Assembly: GCA_003144275.1 (NCBI GenBank)
Contig: NJBF01000087.1
Span: forward strand, 1-7,016
Length of the DNA: 7,016 bases
Origin: Candidatus Heimdallarchaeota archaeon B3_Heim
GTDB taxonomy: Archaea; Asgardarchaeota; Heimdallarchaeia; Hodarchaeales; Hodarchaeaceae
Reading direction: 5' to 3'
This document shows, piece by piece, positions 1 to 7,016 of the stretch (position 1 is its first letter; the number at the start of each line of letters is the position of its first letter). A program made the position numbers and the translations under genes. The notes beneath the pieces were generated by a model that was not told the origin of the DNA, searched no databases, and saw nothing but the letters and a program-made list of their open reading frames with translations.

Positions 1-340
1 CTTCTATTCTAGTTGTCGGATTCATGAGAGGAACGTGCCCTTAGTACGAGAGGAACAGGGTATGGGCGCCTCTAGTGTACGGGTTATCCGGAAGGGTACT
101 GCCCGGCAGCCACGCGCTAACCGATAAATGCTGAATGCTTTCATTAAAAGAAAGCACGAAACGGACCTCGAAAAGACGAATCCATTTTATCATCGACGTT
201 ATGTCATAGGGGCTGATGTCGGTGACCATGAGTGGGTAAACGAGTGCTGGGATAGAATATTCCGTTGATAGAGGAGCAGTGTACGCATGGAGGTTTTTCG
301 ACATGTTTAGTGGTTCTAACAAACTGCCACTCCTCGCACA
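1..340 (+). rRNA. rrl: 23S (LSU) rRNA, 3' portion (domain VI, H94-H101), truncated by the window start; 3' end approximate
   Basis: Sarcin-ricin loop AGTACGAGAGGAAC at 43-56 (archaeal/eukaryotic GAAC form). H94 pairing GGATTC 18-23 / GAATCC 178-183. H96-like CTAGTGTACGGGTT...TGCCCGGCAGC, H97 GATAAATGCTGAA...AGCACGAAAC, H100 TGGGA-TAGAATA-TTCCG 248-264, GTTGATAG and GTGTAC...GTTTAG of H101. The likely H99 pair GTGC 244-247 / GCAC 336-339 sets the approximate end. Confidence 0.95.
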
Positions 341-430
341 GGGGCTAGTTCTTGGGAGAAAAGTGAAAATTATCTGTCCTCTCGTTTTTTTAGAAAAGAA
401 GCCTTAAGAAGTCCAAATGAGTGTGTGTTG
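328..430 (+). repeat. Repeat copy C1 (~105-nt direct repeat) overlapping the 23S 3' end and trailer
   Basis: Blocks TCGCACA-g-GGGCTA (334-347), TCCTCTCG, CCTTAAGAAGTC (402-413) and GAGTGTGTGTTG. The head is 19/20 and the tail 28/30 identical to C3. Confidence 0.93.
385..391 (+). terminator. Possible oligo-T terminator of the rRNA transcript (inside C1)
   Basis: T7 tract about 45 nt after the inferred 23S end; archaeal intrinsic termination uses oligo-T. Function is inferred only. Confidence 0.3.
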
Positions 431-706
431 TTTTCTTGAGAAACTTCTGCTCTTATGTCGGGTGATATTGTCTCTAAAGTTCATCGCGATTGGTCTTTAG
501 CCATGAATTATATTAATAAAAATATCGAAAAAAGCTGTAGTAAAGTTACCCCCTATGTTCTACCTACTTGTAAGACTAATGGGAAGATGTTTAGGCGATT
601 CTCCATCATAAAGATGATACGGGGAGGAAGAATGTCTCAATAGGTTTTAAGAGAAAAAAGAAAAAGCTAGCGGTAAAATTTTACTTAGTGCTTCATTTAT
701 GACTGT

Positions 707-2677
707 TCAACTACCTCCGAAAAGAGCTTTTCGAAAAAAAGCTACTTCTTTAGTAAGTGAATCAATATTGCTCTCTTTTTTCCGAAACCCATGACCCTCA
801 CCCTCATATTCCACGTATTCATATAAAATTCCTTTTCTCTTCAGTACGTTTACCATTTCTCGAGAAATTTCGGGGGTGACAACTTTATCTTCTTTTCCTT
901 GAAATAAGATCATTGGTGATTTCAACTTATCTAAATGATTGATCGGAGAACGTTCTTTGTAAATTTCTTCCCCTTCAATCGAATCTAATGATGCTCCCAT
1001 AAGCCAATCAATGTAACGTGATTCAAATTTGTGAGTTAATTTTGTTAAAGTAACTAGGTTTCCTATACCAAAATAACTAGCCCCCACTTGAAACGTATCG
1101 GGAAATAAGGTCAAAGCACGTTGCACAGCATATCCACCTGCACTTCCACCCGTAATGGCGACTTTAGGTGCAACTAGATCCTGTTTTACCAAATAATCAA
1201 CAGCATCTTTCACATCTTGAGCATCTATTACACCCCATTGAGTCTTTAATGAATCTCGGTATCGTCTCCCAAATGAGGTACTCCCACTATAATCAACATC
1301 AAAAAGGGCATACCCTTGATTCGTCCTAAACTGTTTTGATAATAGATACTGGCAATTAGTTCTTCCAGTAGGTCCCCCGTGAACCATCACAATCAGGGGG
1401 GGTCGTTCTCCTTCAGGAACACGATAATTCTTGTTCTTAGGTAAATATAATTTGCCATAAGCTTTTCTACCATCTGAGGTAGGATATTCTATCTGTTGTG
1501 GGATAGAAATGTCTTGTTCAGTCATTGGATTTGAAAAACTTGTTTTAATAACCTCATACTCCATGGTTTGGAGATCAAGCACAACTAAAGCAGCGGGTTT
1601 TTGAAAACTATGTCCTATAAAAACTATTTCATGTTCAGAATAAGTTTGGAGGGAGATGTGGTCATCAAAGGGAGAATTGAGTGATTCTAACACGTTCGTT
1701 ATGGGGTCGATTAAAGCAAGAAATCCTTTTCCTTCTTTGTCGTAATTTGCGACAATTCGACCGCTAGGTAAGAAATCCCAACTAATAAATCGAAACACCC
1801 ACATAGGAAGACCAAATTCTACATTCTCTTGTGTGATTGCTCGAATTTCATCATTCTCATATTGATAAAAATTCCACCAGTTTCTTGGACTATCTTCAGG
1901 TTGATCCTCTTCATCTAAGACAAAATAGAGTCGTCCTTGTTTATCAAATCGGATACTACCAATAGATATCCCTTTTCCTCCCGCAATGATCTTTTCTGAC
2001 CCTGTTACGACGTTTCCATTCTCAAAGTTGGCCATTACTAACTCTGTGGAATTCCATGGCATATTAGGATGATTATACTGCAGCCAAGCAAGCTGATGGC
2101 CCTCCGTTGAGATGATTGGGTCAAAATAGAAGTCTTTTCCTTCCACAATTATCGTTGGTTCCTGAATTGAGTTTTTGGTAATATCAATGACTGCGATATA
2201 ATTCTCATTTTCTTTGTCAGCAAATTCCTTTTCATATACAAAAATTAGTGTTTTACCATCTGGTGTTAAGAGTGGAGCAGCATACTTACCCAATGATCCA
2301 TCTATATTTTTTTCCGGCGTTAATGGAATAGGGGCCTCATCTGCTATGATTTTTTTTCTATAAAGTCGTTGGTCCACAAAATTTACATAGTAGATATACT
2401 CTTCATCTACTTCCCAACAAAAACCCCCATATTCATGAACCCGACTTCGAACATTTACCTCTTCAGGCAAGATATCAAAAATTCTTCCCTCTTTACTCCG
2501 ACAAACAATAGCTATCCTACCATTCTCAGCAGGACGGAGTTCAGACCAGTAAATATTATTGTTAACTATCTTAACGTTATAAAAAGAGATAGTTTCCTCG
2601 AAAACCTGTTCAGGAGTAATATTAGAAACCCATTTGTGATAGGGTGTATTGTTTTGGAGTTTTTCCATTCCTAACAC
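707..2677 (-). CDS. S9 (prolyl oligopeptidase family) peptidase, acylaminoacyl/dipeptidyl aminopeptidase-like; the true start may be ATG 2668
   Basis: N-terminal propeller-like region with S9-type motifs (RSRVHEYGG, AWLQYNHPNMPW) and HGGPT. Catalytic triad motifs GGSAGG (Ser), QGKEDKVV (Asp) and EGEGHGF (His) are intact. An AGGTG SD-like motif precedes ATG 2668. Confidence 0.95.
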   Translation of the reverse strand: MLGMEKLQNNTPYHKWVSNITPEQVFEETISFYNVKIVNNNIYWSELRPAENGRIAIVCRSKEGRIFDILPEEVNVRSRVHEYGGFCWEVDEEYIYYVNFVDQRLYRKKIIADEAPIPLTPEKNIDGSLGKYAAPLLTPDGKTLIFVYEKEFADKENENYIAVIDITKNSIQEPTIIVEGKDFYFDPIISTEGHQLAWLQYNHPNMPWNSTELVMANFENGNVVTGSEKIIAGGKGISIGSIRFDKQGRLYFVLDEEDQPEDSPRNWWNFYQYENDEIRAITQENVEFGLPMWVFRFISWDFLPSGRIVANYDKEGKGFLALIDPITNVLESLNSPFDDHISLQTYSEHEIVFIGHSFQKPAALVVLDLQTMEYEVIKTSFSNPMTEQDISIPQQIEYPTSDGRKAYGKLYLPKNKNYRVPEGERPPLIVMVHGGPTGRTNCQYLLSKQFRTNQGYALFDVDYSGSTSFGRRYRDSLKTQWGVIDAQDVKDAVDYLVKQDLVAPKVAITGGSAGGYAVQRALTLFPDTFQVGASYFGIGNLVTLTKLTHKFESRYIDWLMGASLDSIEGEEIYKERSPINHLDKLKSPMILFQGKEDKVVTPEISREMVNVLKRKGILYEYVEYEGEGHGFRKKESNIDSLTKEVAFFRKALFGGS

Positions 2678-2768
2678 CTATTTATGATGAAACTAGTGTA
2701 AATTCACCATAGCCGTGCTTGTTAATAAAAGCTAATCCTTCTCGATATTTTCTATAAACACACTTTCC

Positions 2769-2947
2769 AAACGAGTGCTGGGATCTTTCTTAAAAGAAAT
2801 ACGAGTGGAGGTTTTCCGACTTGTGTAGTGTTTAGTACACACTACCACTCATCGCACAAGGGCTACTATTCTAATAATAGTGTGGAAATTAGCAATCCTC
2901 TCGTTTTTTCTTAGAAAAACGCCTTAAGGAGTCAAATAGAGTGCGTT
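2769..2947 (+). repeat. Repeat copy C2, extended at its 5' side with 23S-derived sequence (core 2846-2947)
   Basis: 2769-2784 is identical to 238-253 (16/16). 2806-2865 vs 288-347 is 49/60 ungapped. TCGCACA-a-GGGCTA at 2852-2865; CCTTAAGGAGTC at 2922-2933. Confidence 0.93.
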
Positions 2948-3057
2948 ACTGAGTTTTATGGTACGTTTGGTGGTCACACTTTTGTCGTATATTCTCAGGA
3001 TGCTTTATACAGTCTTCGTCTTGGGATAACCTTCGATTAATCAAAATAAAAAATTAA

Positions 3058-3549
3058 TCATTCTTCTGATAAATTTGGCGCTAAAATAGTCATCAACTCT
3101 CTGGGGTTTTGACCTGGTACCCACTGGCTTTTGGCTTGGGCTACTCTCTGCCTTTTATATTCCCAATATTTCGTGGAATTCTCGTCCTCCTCATCAGGAA
3201 CATCCTTGTTGTCTTTTTGAGCTTCAATTAATGATAAATTTCTGGTAATTTGGGTTTCTAAGTGGATTAAATACCCCTGAAGACGTTCGGAAATCGTTGG
3301 ATCGGATTCAAAATGACCAAGAATTTTCTCTAATACTTCCTGCCGATGGTCTTTCATAAATTGCCATAGAAGCTGAGATAATGGATTGATTTCGAAATAA
3401 AAGGTTTTTAATGCCATCATTACCTTATTTAAACTTGAAGCATCCAGTTTTGTAATACCTGGAGTTGTTTCGACAAGAACTGAGTCTTTAGTATCACTTA
3501 CTTCAATGATAATATGTTCTGTTAATTTCATCAATGAAACCTCACTCAT
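3058..3549 (-). CDS. Hypothetical protein (163 aa)
   Basis: Clean ORF with protein-like composition filling the space between C2 and C3; no recognised motif. Confidence 0.75.
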   Translation of the reverse strand: MSEVSLMKLTEHIIIEVSDTKDSVLVETTPGITKLDASSLNKVMMALKTFYFEINPLSQLLWQFMKDHRQEVLEKILGHFESDPTISERLQGYLIHLETQITRNLSLIEAQKDNKDVPDEEDENSTKYWEYKRQRVAQAKSQWVPGQNPRELMTILAPNLSEE

Positions 3550-3737
3550 CTAGATCCTAGAGATCAGAACAGCAACAATTCTTTAAAATTTTCTAAGCTC
3601 AGTAAGAACTAGAGGGGAATCACGAAAAAATATCCATTCACATCCATAGGGCCTCCTGACAAGAGATGATACAGCAAGGTTAGATTTTGGAGCCATTGTA
3701 AGATTTAGATGATATGATTGTTATTTTTTAGGCCTCT

Positions 3738-3841
3738 CACTCCTCGCACATGGGCTATTATTCTCAGAATAATATGGAAAGTGCCAGTCCTCTTGTTTTT
3801 TTTGAGAAAAAGCCTTCAGGAGTCCAAATGAGTGTGTGTTG
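3738..3841 (+). repeat. Repeat copy C3
   Basis: TCGCACA-t-GGGCTA at 3744-3757; dyad TATTATTCT-C-AGAATAATA at 3756-3774; CCTTCAGGAGTC at 3813-3824; tail GTCCAAATGAGTGTGTGTTG identical to C1. Confidence 0.93.
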
Positions 3842-3912
3842 CGTCTTTCTGATCTAAAGCCTTCTTCGAAGTTTCTCCTTGAGAGAGCCTTTAATTCTTA
3901 TTAGTCGTTTTA

Positions 3913-4428
3913 TTATTTGTCACTTGATATCACTTGTTTAGCTAATATCCGTAATATTTCCTCAATTTGCGTATTGTCTGTGATTTCGGTTTCAAAGTAG
4001 TGAGAATTTAATTTCTTTGCTAGCTGTTTTCCTTCTTCTGTCGTAATTGCCTCTGTCTCTGCTTTAATACCCACCACCGCAATAGGAATTGGACTAGATA
4101 TAACTTTCTTAAACTCTTTGTGGAATGTAGTGACCTTAGTGAATGCCTTCCGATCATTTTTCTCAAACAAGATTATTCCTGCTACTGACCCCCGATAATA
4201 AGAGGAGCGCTGTTTACCGAAGAATTCCTCTCCTGCAATTATTACCAAAATGAGCGTTACTTGATTATTGTCGACATCTATTTTCTTGGTAGGGATATCT
4301 ACTCCGTGTGTCGGTAAATAGTCTGTATCGAATACATTGTCTGCAGTCAATCTACCAAATTTCAAATTTATTTTCGTATTATTGCCAAAAATACTAATTT
4401 TCAATAAATATTCATTCTTATTTGTCAT
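3913..4428 (-). CDS. Rab/Ras-like small GTPase-fold protein with degenerate G motifs (probable pseudo-GTPase)
   Basis: Retains Rab-like YLPTHGVD (G2), SYYRGS, IILFE, PIAVVG, EEGKQLAKKL and YFET. G1 lacks GK[ST], G3 DxxG reads IIAG and G4 NKxD reads IKAE. Confidence 0.88.
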   Translation of the reverse strand: MTNKNEYLLKISIFGNNTKINLKFGRLTADNVFDTDYLPTHGVDIPTKKIDVDNNQVTLILVIIAGEEFFGKQRSSYYRGSVAGIILFEKNDRKAFTKVTTFHKEFKKVISSPIPIAVVGIKAETEAITTEEGKQLAKKLNSHYFETEITDNTQIEEILRILAKQVISSDK

Positions 4429-4521
4429 GTCCAGCTCTCGTTCACGGAGTCTATTTGTACTGGTTGAGAAAAGATAAAGGATTATCTAGAGAAATTCTCC
4501 GGATATTTCATAGCTATCTGT

Positions 4522-4626
4522 TACTAATCGCACACGGGCTACTATTGTTAGAACAGTGTGGAAATGGGCAGTTCTCTCGTTTACTTCGAAGTAATAACCT
4601 TCAGGAGTCAAAGAGAGGGCGTGTTG
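4522..4626 (+). repeat. Repeat copy C4
   Basis: TCGCACA-c-GGGCTA at 4528-4541; perfect 14-bp palindrome TTACTTCGAAGTAA at 4581-4594; CCTTCAGGAGTC at 4598-4609. Confidence 0.9.
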
Positions 4627-4639
4627 TCGAATTTTCTTT

Positions 4640-4807
4640 TTATTGTTTTTTATTCTCTAATTCTTTTATTTTAATTGAAGCCTCGTGAGCGTCTTTTATT
4701 TTCTCTAATTTCTTGAGGAGTTGTTCCTTTTTTCCCCAGATATCCCTTCTATTTGGCTGAATTTCAAGAATTCTCTTAAGCAAGTAAGGATGCATAGTGG
4801 TGGTCAT
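4640..4807 (-). CDS. Small hypothetical protein (55 aa), not in the ORF track
   Basis: Hand translation: MTTTMHPYLLKRILEIQPNRRDIWGKKEQLLKKLEKIKDAHEASIKIKELENKKQ*. The C-terminal half has a coiled-coil-like heptad pattern. The stop lies 13 nt from C4, matching the gene-then-repeat pattern. Confidence 0.6.
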   Translation of the reverse strand: MTTTMHPYLLKRILEIQPNRRDIWGKKEQLLKKLEKIKDAHEASIKIKELENKKQ

Positions 4808-4930
4808 CGGAGGTCAATTATTCAAAAACTTAACGTGTCAAACGAACACCCACTCGAAAGCGATAAGCATAAGAATCCCAATATCCATTGATGATGCTCG
4901 TTCACTAGATAATATTAATCAAAATACAAA

Positions 4931-5545
4931 GTGATAAAAATGAAAATTAAACATAATACCCGTTTGGTTGTTCTTATCGGGGCACTTATTGGAATAACCG
5001 CTCTCTCTATGTTGATTATCGGTTTTGGTCAACATGTGAATGCCTCTACACTCGAAACTCAATATCCTAGCTTCACTTCAATCTCAATGAATCTATTTTA
5101 TGAGGGTGTCGATGGTGAATCAATAATAGCTGGTCGTGAAAATTCAATAACTGTACTTGGCTATTCCCATAGTATCAGTAATCCGTACGACCGACTTACG
5201 GGAGACCTTACTGGTAAACAGCATTCTCCCCTTAGGATAATGAAATTAATTGACAAATCGACTCCAAAACTATATGAAAAATGTGTCAAAGGGAATATTG
5301 CTCCCTCGGTCATCCTACGTTTTTATTTCGAACCTACTGGGTTGAATTTTTATACTATTGAGCTCATCAATGTAAAGATCACTTCTGTTCAAGGATATGG
5401 AACCATAAGTGTCAACGAAATCCCTAGAGAAACCGTTTCTTTCACCTATACAACCATAAAATGGACTTACACTGAATATGCTGCGGATGGAACAGCCAAG
5501 GGTAATATTGAAGCTCAAGATGATTGGATCGACGCACCTAACTGA
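4931..5545 (+). CDS. hcp: Hcp/TssD family (type VI secretion tube) protein with an N-terminal signal peptide or TM segment; the true start may be ATG 4940
   Basis: Hcp motifs in order: GVDGES, ITVLGYSHSI, GKQHSPLRIMKLIDKSTPKLY..CVKG, FYTIEL.NVKITSV and ETVSFTY..IKWTY. N-terminus is basic MKIKHNTR, then about 20 hydrophobic residues, then VNA|S. A GTGAT SD-like motif precedes ATG 4940. Confidence 0.92.
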   Translation: MIKMKIKHNTRLVVLIGALIGITALSMLIIGFGQHVNASTLETQYPSFTSISMNLFYEGVDGESIIAGRENSITVLGYSHSISNPYDRLTGDLTGKQHSPLRIMKLIDKSTPKLYEKCVKGNIAPSVILRFYFEPTGLNFYTIELINVKITSVQGYGTISVNEIPRETVSFTYTTIKWTYTEYAADGTAKGNIEAQDDWIDAPN

Positions 5546-5556
5546 CGTGAAGCAGT

Positions 5557-6222
5557 ATGAAACCAAAGAATGTGTCATTAGTATTTCTATTAGTACTACT
5601 ATCATTTGGTTCATTTTCCTTCCTTACTCTTACTGGTGCGATTCTTCTCGATACTGATGTCTCAATTTCAAAAGTAACTCAAAACGGATCGAGTTTCTGG
5701 ATTACTCTTGATTACGATTTTTCTGTTGCCCCAGCTAGAGAAGAAACGGAATCATTGGTGGTTCTTATCTTACTTACGCTCCCGTTAGGTGATACAAATC
5801 AGTATGTTGGATCATTGTTATTTTTCCGTACCACTACTGGAAATAATTTACTGTTCTGGATGCTTGGTGACCCATACGCCAGCGTTGGCTTATGGCAATC
5901 GGGAAGTGAAGATGAGCATTTTCAAGTGGCTTATAACCAGCTTTCTTTGATATTCATTGAGTGCCCAGATATGGACGATCCCGATCTGAGTATTATTTCT
6001 CTGGCGAAGCTATTAGAGATTGGCACTATCGACCAAATTACTGTTGATTTTCAGCCAATCCTGAATACGTTTCTACCTGACTTACAATCCATAGAAGTAA
6101 TTCACCTGGATAGTACTTCAACAACCACAACAAAAGCCAAAGGATTTCCAGGTTTTCTTCTTCCCGTAAATCTGGGAATCTTGATTCTCATCGGGTTAAA
6201 ACACAGGAAGAAGACCCCTTAA
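5557..6222 (+). CDS. Secreted surface protein with a PGF-CTERM-like (archaeosortase-type) C-terminal sorting signal
   Basis: Signal peptide MKPK + hydrophobic stretch + LTGA|. C-terminus has the STSTTTT linker, PGF, a hydrophobic helix and the basic tail KHRKK. It starts 11 nt after the hcp stop. Confidence 0.85.
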   Translation: MKPKNVSLVFLLVLLSFGSFSFLTLTGAILLDTDVSISKVTQNGSSFWITLDYDFSVAPAREETESLVVLILLTLPLGDTNQYVGSLLFFRTTTGNNLLFWMLGDPYASVGLWQSGSEDEHFQVAYNQLSLIFIECPDMDDPDLSIISLAKLLEIGTIDQITVDFQPILNTFLPDLQSIEVIHLDSTSTTTTKAKGFPGFLLPVNLGILILIGLKHRKKTP

Positions 6223-6225
6223 ATC

Positions 6226-6356
6226 ATTGAAAGACAATTGAGGACTAGGGGAACTCATCCTCTTTCTCCCTCATTTTTGCTGTCACATTTTAGTAGAATA
6301 ATGTGAAAAGGGTCAGTCCTTTCATTTACCCACTTCTGATCTGGTGGTCTTTCAAT
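6226..6356. other. 131-bp intergenic element bounded by a perfect 10-bp inverted repeat, with nested stems
   Basis: ATTGAAAGAC 6226-6235 / GTCTTTCAAT 6347-6356; AGGACT 6241-6246 / AGTCCT 6315-6320; TCACATT 6283-6289 / AATGTGA 6300-6306. It lies between convergent genes. Confidence 0.6.
6295..6320 (+). repeat. Partial repeat copy C5
   Basis: AGAATAATGTGAAAAGGGTCAGTCCT vs C3 3766-3791 AGAATAATATGGAAAGTGCCAGTCCT, 22/26 ungapped. Upstream AGGACTA (6241-6247) resembles the AGGGCTA block. Confidence 0.6.
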
Positions 6357-6383
6357 TTTCTATTAATAAAAGTTTTTTTACTT

Positions 6384-6608
6384 CTACCATCGTCCTGTGC
6401 GCTTTTTACTCCGAGGATGTTGTTTTTTACTGCGAAACATACTGAGCTTCTTTCGTCGCTTATCACCTTTATTTCGCTTCTTATAATGGACGACTTCCCC
6501 CCGTCTTAATCTTCTTCCCATTTTTTTTTCTGCTACCTGTCGCGGTTCCGATTTTCCTGAGTCTCCAAACCGTTTATCCCCTTTTTTATTCCTAAAAATC
6601 CTCACCAT
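6384..6608 (-). pseudogene. HNH endonuclease-like ORF (HNH_3-type) with substituted catalytic residues; pseudogene, inactive derivative or sequence errors
   Basis: RQVAEKKMGRRLRRGEVVHYKKRNKGDKRRKKL...H follows the spacing of the HR.VAE..LGR.L...EVVHH.N.NK.DN...NL consensus, but key His and Asn positions read P, Y, K, K and K. Confidence 0.7.
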
Positions 6609-6630
6609 CTAAATCTCTTCCCTTTCCATT

Positions 6631-6762
6631 TTATCTTTTTGATTTCCTGTGAGTTGGATTCAGTTGATTTGCTCTGTTGTTCCTGTCGGCTTTATAACTG
6701 CTATTCATTGGATTTTTTACATTCCCCCTCTGATTACTACCTTTTCTTTTACCCATCTTCAT
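6631..6762 (-). CDS. Small basic protein (43 aa) with an NNRANQLNP motif, not in the ORF track
   Basis: Hand translation: MKMGKRKGSNQRGNVKNPMNSSYKADRNNRANQLNPTHRKSKR*. It contains an internal pseudo-repeat (NQRGNVKNP / NNRANQLNP) and ends 22 nt before the HNH ORF start. Confidence 0.6.
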   Translation of the reverse strand: MKMGKRKGSNQRGNVKNPMNSSYKADRNNRANQLNPTHRKSKR

Positions 6763-7016
6763 TCACTATCATGACTAGATTTGTCAGACAACTCTTGAAA
6801 AGAGTTCTGGACAGGATGAGTCACACATCCGCTATCCGGCAGATTAGCACCACTAAAAGGGTTACTATTCATTGGGACTACTTGAAGCGTCCTTACTGCT
6901 GATATCCCCAGCGCTAATACCTCTCACGTCTAAAGGGTCATTCTTCTCTTGCCTTTGACGGGTAACTCGTCTCACGTAGTTACAAGTGAATAAGACCCAA
7001 GAAGTTAGGAATTTTT

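Follow-up and report, generated by a model that had tools for sequence, protein, structure and literature searches.

A fast-changing island of accessory genes separated by copies of the 23S rRNA gene tail in an Asgard archaeon and its congeners

The archaeon Candidatus Heimdallarchaeota archaeon B3_Heim and its close relatives keep long, fast-changing arrays of accessory genes in which the gene blocks are separated by same-direction spare copies of the tail of the 23S rRNA gene, and in two congeners such an array starts at a genuine 23S 3' end. No integrase is nearby, and an rRNA gene end therefore seems to serve as a gene-capture site in the way that tRNA gene ends do elsewhere. We found no paper describing this arrangement.

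Repeats and cargo in the window

The window is a 7,016-nt stretch of DNA (contig NJBF01000087.1 of assembly GCA_003144275.1, positions 1 to 7,016). The original prediction, made from this sequence alone, described four direct repeats of about 105 nt derived from the 23S 3' end and trailer, with one substantial gene between consecutive copies, and this observation is confirmed. The four repeats are real (E 1e-24 to 1e-30) and lie where they had been placed: an nhmmer search puts them at 324-428, 2842-2946, 3734-3839 and 4518-4624, with E 2e-24 to 3e-26, and a covariance model gives E 3e-26 to 1e-29. Their shared sequence blocks and the spacing of these are also as had been described. One ORF of at least 160 aa lies between consecutive copies, all on the minus strand, and a 55-aa ORF abuts copy 4. 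The Rfam archaeal LSU match ends at 342, such that copy 1 overlaps the rRNA-like end by about 15-19 nt. The features of the window are as follows, where G numbers denote the genomes compared and C numbers contigs.

1-342 (+): stand-alone "long" copy, a 23S rRNA domain VI fragment (plus trailer) with the sarcin-ricin loop at about 41-58, in which the canonical loop GCATCTAAGC is replaced; positions 1-13 are a degenerate junction, not intact 23S (Rfam LSU_rRNA_archaea 2708-2987, 165 bits).
324-463 (+): repeat copy 1 (rRNA tail), comprising the 23S 3' end, hairpin A, the core with half of the bulge-helix-bulge (BHB) motif (about 361-384), hairpin B, the stem block GCCTTAAGAAGTC (401-413) and a tail.
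707-2677 (-): cargo 1, an S9 prolyl-oligopeptidase-family serine peptidase of 656 aa (Pfam PF00326, E 1e-41); the same block sits between other neighbours in G013 and in metagenome run X1.
2769-2962 (+): repeat copy 2, with a 75-nt 23S-like 5' extension (2769-2841); core about 2880-2903.
3058-3549 (-): cargo 2, a 163-aa protein of unknown family (weak PqqD/RRE-like match below cutoff); homologues lie in the arrays of G020, G003 and G018, and it is absent at this position in G013.
3730-3855 (+): repeat copy 3; core about 3773-3795.
3913-4428 (-): cargo 3, a Ras-family small GTPase-like protein of 171 aa (Pfam PF00071, E 1.5e-24); the match covers profile positions 21-160, so the N-terminal P-loop region is not matched.
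4512-4629 (+): repeat copy 4; core about 4556-4579. Homology with G013 starts inside it, at the GCCTT block.
4640-4807 (-): 55-aa ORF of uncertain coding status, with only a weak Pfam match; the region is conserved in G013 at about 92-95% nt.
4931-6222 (+): cargo 4, an Hcp-domain protein (4931-5545; Pfam PF05638, E 9e-28) and a 221-aa protein with no family match (5557-6222), which travel as one block with the 55-aa ORF; colinear with G013 C70:9935-7663 and with a metagenome contig.
6284-6329 (+): degenerate fifth repeat copy (core only; nhmmer E 5e-4, same orientation); G013 has a copy at the matching place.
6768-7016 (+): left part of a roughly 410-nt MITE-like element with terminal inverted repeats, an insertion in the array that caused the contig break. 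It continues in C50:1-157, after which the array goes on for three more copies; its depth is 150-520 in four metagenomes.

In addition to the fifth copy and the 5' extension of copy 2, the units run about 30-40 nt further 3' than the original prediction had proposed. The prediction also took copy 1 to overlap the mature end of the 23S gene, but window 1-342 is not the true 23S gene. Its first 125 nt are identical to an internal copy, C65:12749-12625, whose upstream flank shows at most degenerate 23S-like similarity for about 20 nt and then none, and metagenome contigs branch at window position 14 into true 23S sequence and other flanks. The proposed rule that every gene is antisense to the rRNA and followed by a repeat holds only in this window.

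Arrays across the genus and the origin of the repeat

The window is part of something larger. This MAG holds 24 copies, of which all but one weak match lie on four short contigs. We mapped 140 copies on 37 contigs of six congeners, and orientation is never mixed within a contig. The family was found only in this genus, in 16 of 21 congeners and in 0 of 39 other genomes searched. In G004 a genuine 23S is followed by a tail copy and then a further direct copy (C44: 23S end plus trailer at 2061-2245, repeated at 5822-5989), and in G007 (contig C8) a genuine 23S is followed by at least 9 copies over 51 kb. As the true 23S of the MAG studied here is not assembled, this anchoring is shown only in congeners.

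The repeat unit is the 23S 3' end plus the 3' strand of the pre-23S processing stem, including half of the BHB cut signal; copies share the 3' part and reach 20 to about 330 nt back into 23S. In G007 the repeat blocks CAGTCCTCTCG and GCCTTAAGGAGTC and the GUGUG-GAA-AUUU segment pair with the 23S leader as a BHB processing stem (helix, 3-nt bulge, 4-bp helix, 3-nt bulge, helix; cofold of the genuine leader and trailer -83 kcal/mol), and the leaders of G016 and G001 carry the complement. The copies in the window conserve the same blocks, although the 23S leader of this MAG itself is not assembled. Hairpin B covaries, with 81% of cells paired and with UA to CG and UA to AU swaps; no shuffle of 500 reached the observed value on four of five measures (4 of 500 on the fifth), and slid controls were lower. 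Hairpin A has 96 distinct sequences that mostly still fold.

The cargo consists of unrelated accessory genes in either orientation, with 94 sense and 77 antisense ORFs of at least 100 aa inside the arrays, in blocks of median length 1.7 kb that mostly hold one or two genes. Most blocks are unique to one genome, while shared blocks are 87-97% identical at the nucleotide level between genomes but have different neighbours. Metagenome contigs from another study carry the peptidase block between other flanks, and carry the G013-type join. Homology breakpoints lie inside the repeats at several different positions, although this sample is small (17 informative pairs). No PF00589 tyrosine recombinase lies on any array contig in 22 genomes of the genus, and G003 (36 copies) and G013 have only the conserved high-scoring tyrosine recombinase that every genome carries, which we take to be XerA-like. 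Among the 46 array ORFs scanned against profiles there was no recombinase, serine recombinases included, and no viral or plasmid backbone gene.

Proposed mechanism of accretion

The original prediction interpreted the repeats as an integron-like gene-capture platform that uses the LSU rRNA 3' end as its landing site, with the recombinase in trans, and this interpretation is partly supported. Derivation of the repeat from the 23S 3' end and trailer, its delimitation of unrelated blocks, its confinement to arrays, the start of an array at a genuine 23S 3' end in two congeners, the variation of block content and order between relatives and the absence of a recombinase in cis are all supported. 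The integron analogy fails, copy 1 does not sit on the real 23S gene, and a dedicated recombinase acting in trans is not shown, as the dispersed breakpoints fit homology-dependent exchange at least as well. The alternative offered with that prediction, a dispersed terminator or ncRNA family, is rejected, as is a scattered MITE- or REP-like repeat, because 23 of 24 matches lie on four array contigs and every copy within a contig has the same orientation.

With moderate confidence, we consider that the window is an internal stretch of a hypervariable accessory-gene island, at least 35-50 kb long, which in this genus starts at the 3' end of the 23S rRNA gene, and which grew by serial accretion and shuffling through recombination within rRNA-tail homology. 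In this view the tail is the last 20 to about 330 nt of 23S plus about 140 nt of trailer. A new block would arrive on DNA that carries its own rRNA tail, for example a circle excised from the array of another cell, and would recombine with the resident tail or with any spare copy, such that one crossover inside the tail homology adds the block plus one more tail copy; recombination between copies would later delete, excise or reshuffle blocks. The conserved blocks of the repeat would be conserved because functional tails must pair with the 23S leader, and the two variable hairpins would be lineage-specific bulged helices. The layout of the arrays, their polarity, the leader pairing, the hairpin covariation, the different neighbours of shared blocks, the position of the breakpoints and the lack of a PF00589 match on array contigs are shown by our data, whereas the route of entry, the crossover mechanism and the nature of the enzyme are inferred, and no excised circle or empty site was seen. 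We lean only tentatively towards general homologous recombination over an unlinked site-specific recombinase, which remains a somewhat less likely possibility. Copies are only about 75-85% alike, with identical stretches of 14-22 nt, which is short for efficient homologous recombination. Further, the 5' limits of 16 long copies, each with a different upstream flank, fall in a 25-nt window at the domain V/VI junction, which pure homologous recombination does not predict and which hints at a site- or structure-specific step, while other copies start at many positions.

The strongest competing account, which we regard as possible but unlikely, is a site-specific capture system in which an unlinked recombinase (XerA, or an enzyme on a virus or plasmid outside the bins) recognises the conserved core of the tail and inserts or excises tail-bearing cassettes, as IntI does with attC or Xer does with IMEX elements. 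The 22-nt core is nearly invariant in 105 copies, polarity is strict, the 5' limits of long copies are narrow although their flanks differ, two junctions break at the same GCCTT block, and no recombinase lies in cis, as in CALINs. However, pairing with the 23S leader already explains the conserved core, breakpoints occur in at least three different intervals of the repeat, the ssDNA fold is neither attC-like nor consistent, gene orientation is random, and G003 holds its 36 copies with only the XerA-like enzyme. Less likely again, the arrays may be the decayed remains of ordinary integrative elements, viruses or plasmids with their own integrases, that targeted the 23S 3' end one after another, each carrying a replacement gene end, and later lost their integrases and most other genes. 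This is consistent with the geometry of tandem islands at tRNA/tmRNA genes, in which a regenerated gene end is accompanied by a displaced direct repeat, with the sharp 5' limit of long copies, as a fixed attP homology limit would give, and with cargo such as VapBC and Fic that is typical of mobile elements. Yet about 245 kb of arrays in six genomes holds no integrase, not even a fragment matching PF00589, the short blocks usually hold one gene, and backbone genes were absent from the ORFs scanned. Very unlikely is in-place insertion with long target duplication, in which staggered breaks at the heavily transcribed rRNA 3' end are filled in after ligation of foreign DNA, so that each event duplicates 100-440 nt of the local target. 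Long direct duplications do flank each insert, and this mechanism has been proposed for rRNA operons and restriction-modification genes in bacteria (Lim et al. 2012, PMC3457768), but adjacent copies are only 67-89% alike by pairwise identity and carry different hairpin alleles with compensated stems, which is not expected from duplication of one local target followed by neutral decay, and the same hairpin-B alleles recur across genomes.

A bolder proposal, doubtful on present evidence although not excluded by it, is that the 3' end of the large-subunit rRNA gene is a dedicated gene-capture site in archaea, served by an unidentified recombination activity that acts on the rRNA tail and processing-stem sequence, possibly at the domain V/VI junction and in the trailer, and thus a counterpart of integrons without IntI or attC. 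If rRNA gene ends are regular landing pads for accessory genes, a large part of strain-level gene flux in Asgard archaea and other archaea passes through a locus that short-read assemblies and binning routinely lose; here the island is shattered into four contigs and the 23S gene itself is missing from the bin. Small Ras-like GTPases, often discussed as eukaryote-like signature proteins, would then be mobile cargo, with three of them in the arrays of this MAG, which bears on how such families spread. The system would also offer a testable case of cassette exchange without a dedicated integrase, and the rRNA tail would be a natural neutral insertion site that could be tried as a genetic tool once members of this group are cultured.

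Comparison with known systems

Genomic islands and integrative elements at tRNA/tmRNA gene 3' ends include tandem arrays, integrase-less cis-mobilisable elements and the tycheposon islands of Prochlorococcus. As in these, the landing site is the 3' end of a stable-RNA gene, the gene end is regenerated with the old end displaced as a direct repeat, serial accretion gives co-oriented partial gene copies separating accessory cargo, and content is hypervariable between close relatives. Here, however, the target is the 23S rRNA tail plus the processing-stem strand rather than a tRNA, repeats are 105-470 nt, blocks are 1-2 genes long, no integrase lies in or beside about 245 kb of arrays, and the breakpoints in the small sample of informative pairs are not at a single position, although the 5' limits of the 16 long copies fall within 25 nt.

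Chromosomal integrons and CALINs, including archaeal integrons (Ghaly et al. 2022, PMC9668308), likewise have long arrays of small unrelated cassettes separated by polar repeats about 100 nt long, with TA modules, GNATs and orphan genes as cargo and an order that varies between strains, and CALINs also have no integrase nearby. In contrast, the arrays described here have no IntI. They also lack the attC architecture, an imperfect palindrome (R''-L''...L'-R') that folds as one ssDNA hairpin with a GTTRRRY core: ssDNA folds of three copies on both strands show no common end-to-end hairpin, with z-scores of -0.1 to -2.2, and the repeat instead has a conserved linear core derived from rRNA and two small internal hairpins. 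Integron cassettes are mostly promoterless and co-oriented with the repeat 3' of the gene, whereas here genes lie in either orientation and so probably have their own promoters, and the array is anchored at an rRNA gene rather than an attI.

Insertion with long target duplication and partial rRNA-operon duplications in bacteria (Lim, Furuta and Kobayashi 2012, PMC3457768) also place foreign DNA between long direct duplications of rRNA-operon sequence with no known enzyme, but those cases are single events with near-identical duplicates, while here dozens of diverged copies carry lineage-specific compensated hairpins and blocks are exchanged between genomes. Finally, the conserved part of the repeat is the 3' strand of exactly the archaeal pre-rRNA processing stem with its BHB motif, but in the array this strand is present without its leader partner, and the spare copies therefore probably act as DNA homology, not as processing sites.

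The repeat array and its distribution in the genus

The window is C9, a whole 7,016-nt contig of a 3.95-Mb, 103-contig MAG with 36% GC. The observation of four direct repeats made in the original prediction was confirmed, as all four lie where they had been placed, with a profile built from them recovering each at E 2e-24 to 3e-26 and a covariance model recovering them at E 3e-26 to 1e-29. Between the repeats lie genes for an S9 peptidase, a 163-aa orphan and a Ras-family GTPase-like protein, and a 55-aa ORF follows copy 4, with all four on the minus strand. We considered that the 163-aa protein might be a recurrent array gene, but it is a single family with one copy per genome. Copy 2 carries about 75 nt more of 23S-like sequence at its 5' side, and the array does not stop at 4807. 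The features of the window to which we refer below are:
1-342, a domain VI piece that is not the 23S gene
323-2954, the block of the S9 peptidase gene (minus strand)
3913-4428, minus strand, Ras-family GTPase-like protein, whose Pfam match starts at profile position 21 and so misses the N-terminal P-loop region
4557-6766, the block from copy 4 onward
4931-5545, plus strand, protein with a type VI secretion Hcp domain (PF05638, E 9e-28) and a hydrophobic N-terminus
5557-6222, plus strand, 221-aa protein with hydrophobic N- and C-terminal stretches and no family match
6284-6329, degenerate fifth copy of the repeat
6330-6767, pyrimidine-rich stretch of about 440 nt with no convincing ORF, partly conserved in the related genomes G013 and G018
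6768-7016, part of a MITE-like element of about 410 nt

We initially considered that the end of the window (6200-7016) was rRNA-like, but it has no Rfam match at E up to 1, and contains instead the MITE-like element, which has roughly 20-nt terminal inverted repeats (CATGA..GTCAGAC), 30 or more full or internally deleted copies in the MAG in both orientations, and very high depth in four metagenomes. This element is inserted in the array and broke the assembly, continuing at positions 1-157 of contig C50. That C9 and C50 are neighbours is indicated by their overlap of 44 nt, by the position of this overlap inside the MITE, which explains the contig break, and by the presence of the same blocks on one contig of the close relative G013.

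The MAG holds 24 copies of the repeat, and all but one weak match lie on four contigs, with 5 on C9, 3 at the start of C50, 7 on C65 and 9 on C79. The covariance model finds the family in 16 of 21 other genomes of the same genus and in none of 39 genomes of other genera, although the model is specific to this genus and so says little about analogous arrays elsewhere, and a class-wide LSU search that scored only three candidates per genome gives no conclusion on other genera. In two other genera of the class, contigs carrying 23S (the end of G033:C1, at 136836, and the start of G044:C49) stop at LSU model positions 2717 and 2702, the same domain V/VI junction at which long copies of the repeat begin, and no domain VI is assembled in either bin, as would be expected if domain VI is multi-copy there too. 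We mapped 140 copies on 37 contigs of six genomes, and every contig has a single orientation, for which the chance would be about 2^-103 if orientation were random. Spacers have a median of 1.7 kb, and 60 of 106 hold exactly one ORF of at least 100 aa. ORFs of at least 100 aa inside the arrays are sense 94 times and antisense 77 times, and the all-antisense arrangement described in the original prediction is therefore local to the window.

Origin of the repeat and its relation to the 23S gene

The 5' end of the repeat is the last 15-20 nt of 23S. Many copies reach further back, and 15 "long" copies contain the whole of domain VI (Rfam positions 2721-2973). The genuine 23S of the congener G004 ends in the same sequence, and its trailer carries the same core. 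In the congener G007 both the leader and the trailer of the genuine gene are available, and cofolding them gives a long processing stem (-83 kcal/mol) in which the repeat blocks CAGTCC..TCG and GCCTTAAGGAGTC pair with the leader, and in which GUGUG / GAA / AUUU forms the trailer half of a bulge-helix-bulge motif. Leaders of G016 and G001 carry the matching complement. The two variable segments of the repeat are small hairpins. RNAalifold on the raw MAFFT alignment of 20 copies gave no structure, and the structure was therefore supplied by hand and tested on an alignment fitted to the model, which leans towards that structure. On this alignment hairpin B is paired in 81% of cells, with UA to CG (31) and UA to AU (16) exchanges, no shuffle of 500 reached the observed value on four of five whole-structure measures (4 of 500 on the fifth), and slid controls score about half. 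Hairpin A has 96 different sequences in 105 copies, most of which form 5-8 bp stems. The unit is therefore the rRNA tail, consisting of the 23S end plus the 3' strand of the processing stem. Several helix tips of the spare domain VI copies (window 130-160, and long copies in loci L016, L046 and L053) are replaced or extended by small TTTC..AAAGAAA-type hairpins of the same style as hairpins A and B. High-scoring (215-227 bits) stand-alone domain VI fragments also occur in species whose trailers lack hairpins A and B (G010:C12:515019-515329; G001:C52 and C45; G002:C184; G012:C390), one of them following a gene that is probably of PIN/VapC type, as judged from the sequence only, and the long-copy phenomenon is therefore wider in the genus than the covariance model shows.

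Window 1-342 is not the 23S gene. The MAG holds no complete 23S, as a genome-wide LSU search lists only two internal fragments on C65, and the window's own cut-off match and a partial copy at C65:1-116 are also domain VI pieces. The first 125 nt of the window equal an internal copy on C65, whose upstream flank shows at most degenerate 23S-like similarity for about 20 nt and then none. Contigs from four metagenomes branch at window position 14, some continuing into true 23S sequence (GACAGGTCGGACTTTATCTATTGGACG) and others into unrelated flanks. The window's copy also replaces a canonical loop.

Anchoring at a real 23S gene was observed in two congeners. In G004, a 23S that runs unbroken across the domain V/VI junction is followed by its trailer, and the last roughly 20 nt of 23S plus about 165 nt of trailer recur 3.75 kb downstream at 89% identity. 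In G007, contig C8 ends inside the genuine 23S, with domain V and domain VI contiguous and the 5' part of the gene on C9 of that genome, and an array of at least 9 copies over 51 kb follows directly. The genuine 23S of G007 has a roughly 320-nt insertion relative to G004 (G007:C8:54309-54628, locus L076), about 40 nt upstream of the domain V/VI junction where the long copies begin, which may be an rRNA intron. The single-contig genomes G009, G015 and G006 gave no 23S match at all, and so did not contribute to this comparison. The interpretation in the original prediction, of a gene-capture platform with the LSU rRNA 3' end as its landing site, is thus supported in part, as the platform idea holds in these congeners but for this MAG would rest on analogy with them, and its analogy with integrons fails beyond the layout.

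Turnover and cargo of the arrays

G013 shares blocks with this MAG at 92-96% nt, but in another order. The peptidase block (window 323-2954) and the block from copy 4 onward (4557-6766) are both present, but the 163-aa protein and GTPase-like cargo are not between them, and about 6.5 kb of other blocks and a long copy lie there instead. Across six genomes most inter-repeat segments are unique, as only 19 clusters among 164 segments are shared, and shared ones have different neighbours. A 6.1-kb contig from metagenome run X1 carries the peptidase block between unrelated flanks, and a 5.3-kb contig from the same run has the G013-type join. We relied only on these two long contigs, since most repeat-to-repeat joints in the metagenome contigs have sides of only 20-77 nt inside repeats, may be other copies aligning chimerically, and are not evidence of excision. 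An exact-match scan of metagenome contigs with the core found only three short contigs. Fine alignments place the switch from about 95% to about 75% identity inside the repeats, twice between hairpin B and the GCCTT block, once in the 23S-like extension, and in other cases between the 23S end and hairpin A or between hairpin A and the core. On average, in a small sample of 17 informative pairs, the downstream cargo is linked to hairpin B and the tail, the upstream cargo is linked to the 23S-like part, and hairpin A is linked to neither.

No PF00589 match lies on any array contig in 22 genomes. The congener G003 has 36 copies and G013 has 10-11, and each has only the one high-scoring tyrosine recombinase that nearly every genome of the genus carries, which we take to be XerA-like. 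The 46 array and flanking ORFs of this MAG that we scanned encode two VapBC-like pairs, an ArsR / permease / DsbD / thioredoxin block, Fic, an ABC ATPase, a GNAT, methyltransferases, three Ras-like GTPases, TPR proteins, P5C reductase and an FAD oxidase, and none is a recombinase, transposase or replication protein. The 551-aa ORF beside the array on C50, which we had considered as a possible Rep-like transposase, is an FAD-linked oxidase. Three Ras-family small GTPase genes are array cargo in this MAG (window 3913-4428; L017:4767-5327 and L017:11097-11609), and eukaryote-like GTPases here behave as mobile accessory genes. An Hcp fold as array cargo in an Asgard archaeon is unusual.

Inferred mechanism and comparison with known systems

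Our data establish a polar, rRNA-tail-delimited island with block turnover and intra-repeat breakpoints, while the manner in which this island is built remains an inference. In the model that we infer, blocks enter with their own tail copy and recombine within the tail homology, as in Campbell-type integration, and recombination between copies then shuffles and deletes blocks. This model explains why spare copies look like functional tails of different lineages, with compensated hairpins and conserved leader-pairing blocks, and also why breakpoints sit in the conserved stretches. It does not explain why 16 long copies with different upstream flanks all begin within 25 nt of the domain V/VI junction, which points to some site- or structure-specific step. 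The motif GTGTTG, which occurs both at the 5' limit of long copies and near the 3' end of the repeat, was considered as a recombination core, but similarity continues past it in most copies, and this possibility was rejected. In-place target duplication fits poorly, because neighbouring copies are only 67-89% alike and carry different hairpin alleles.

Full-text literature searches found no description of rRNA-tail cassette arrays in archaea, although absence from the library searched is not proof. Lim et al. 2012 describe single partial duplications in bacterial rRNA operons, and propose insertion with long target duplication. Integrons and CALINs resemble the array in layout, but they fail three of four defining features. 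The closest known kind is the tandem accretion of islands at tRNA/tmRNA gene ends.
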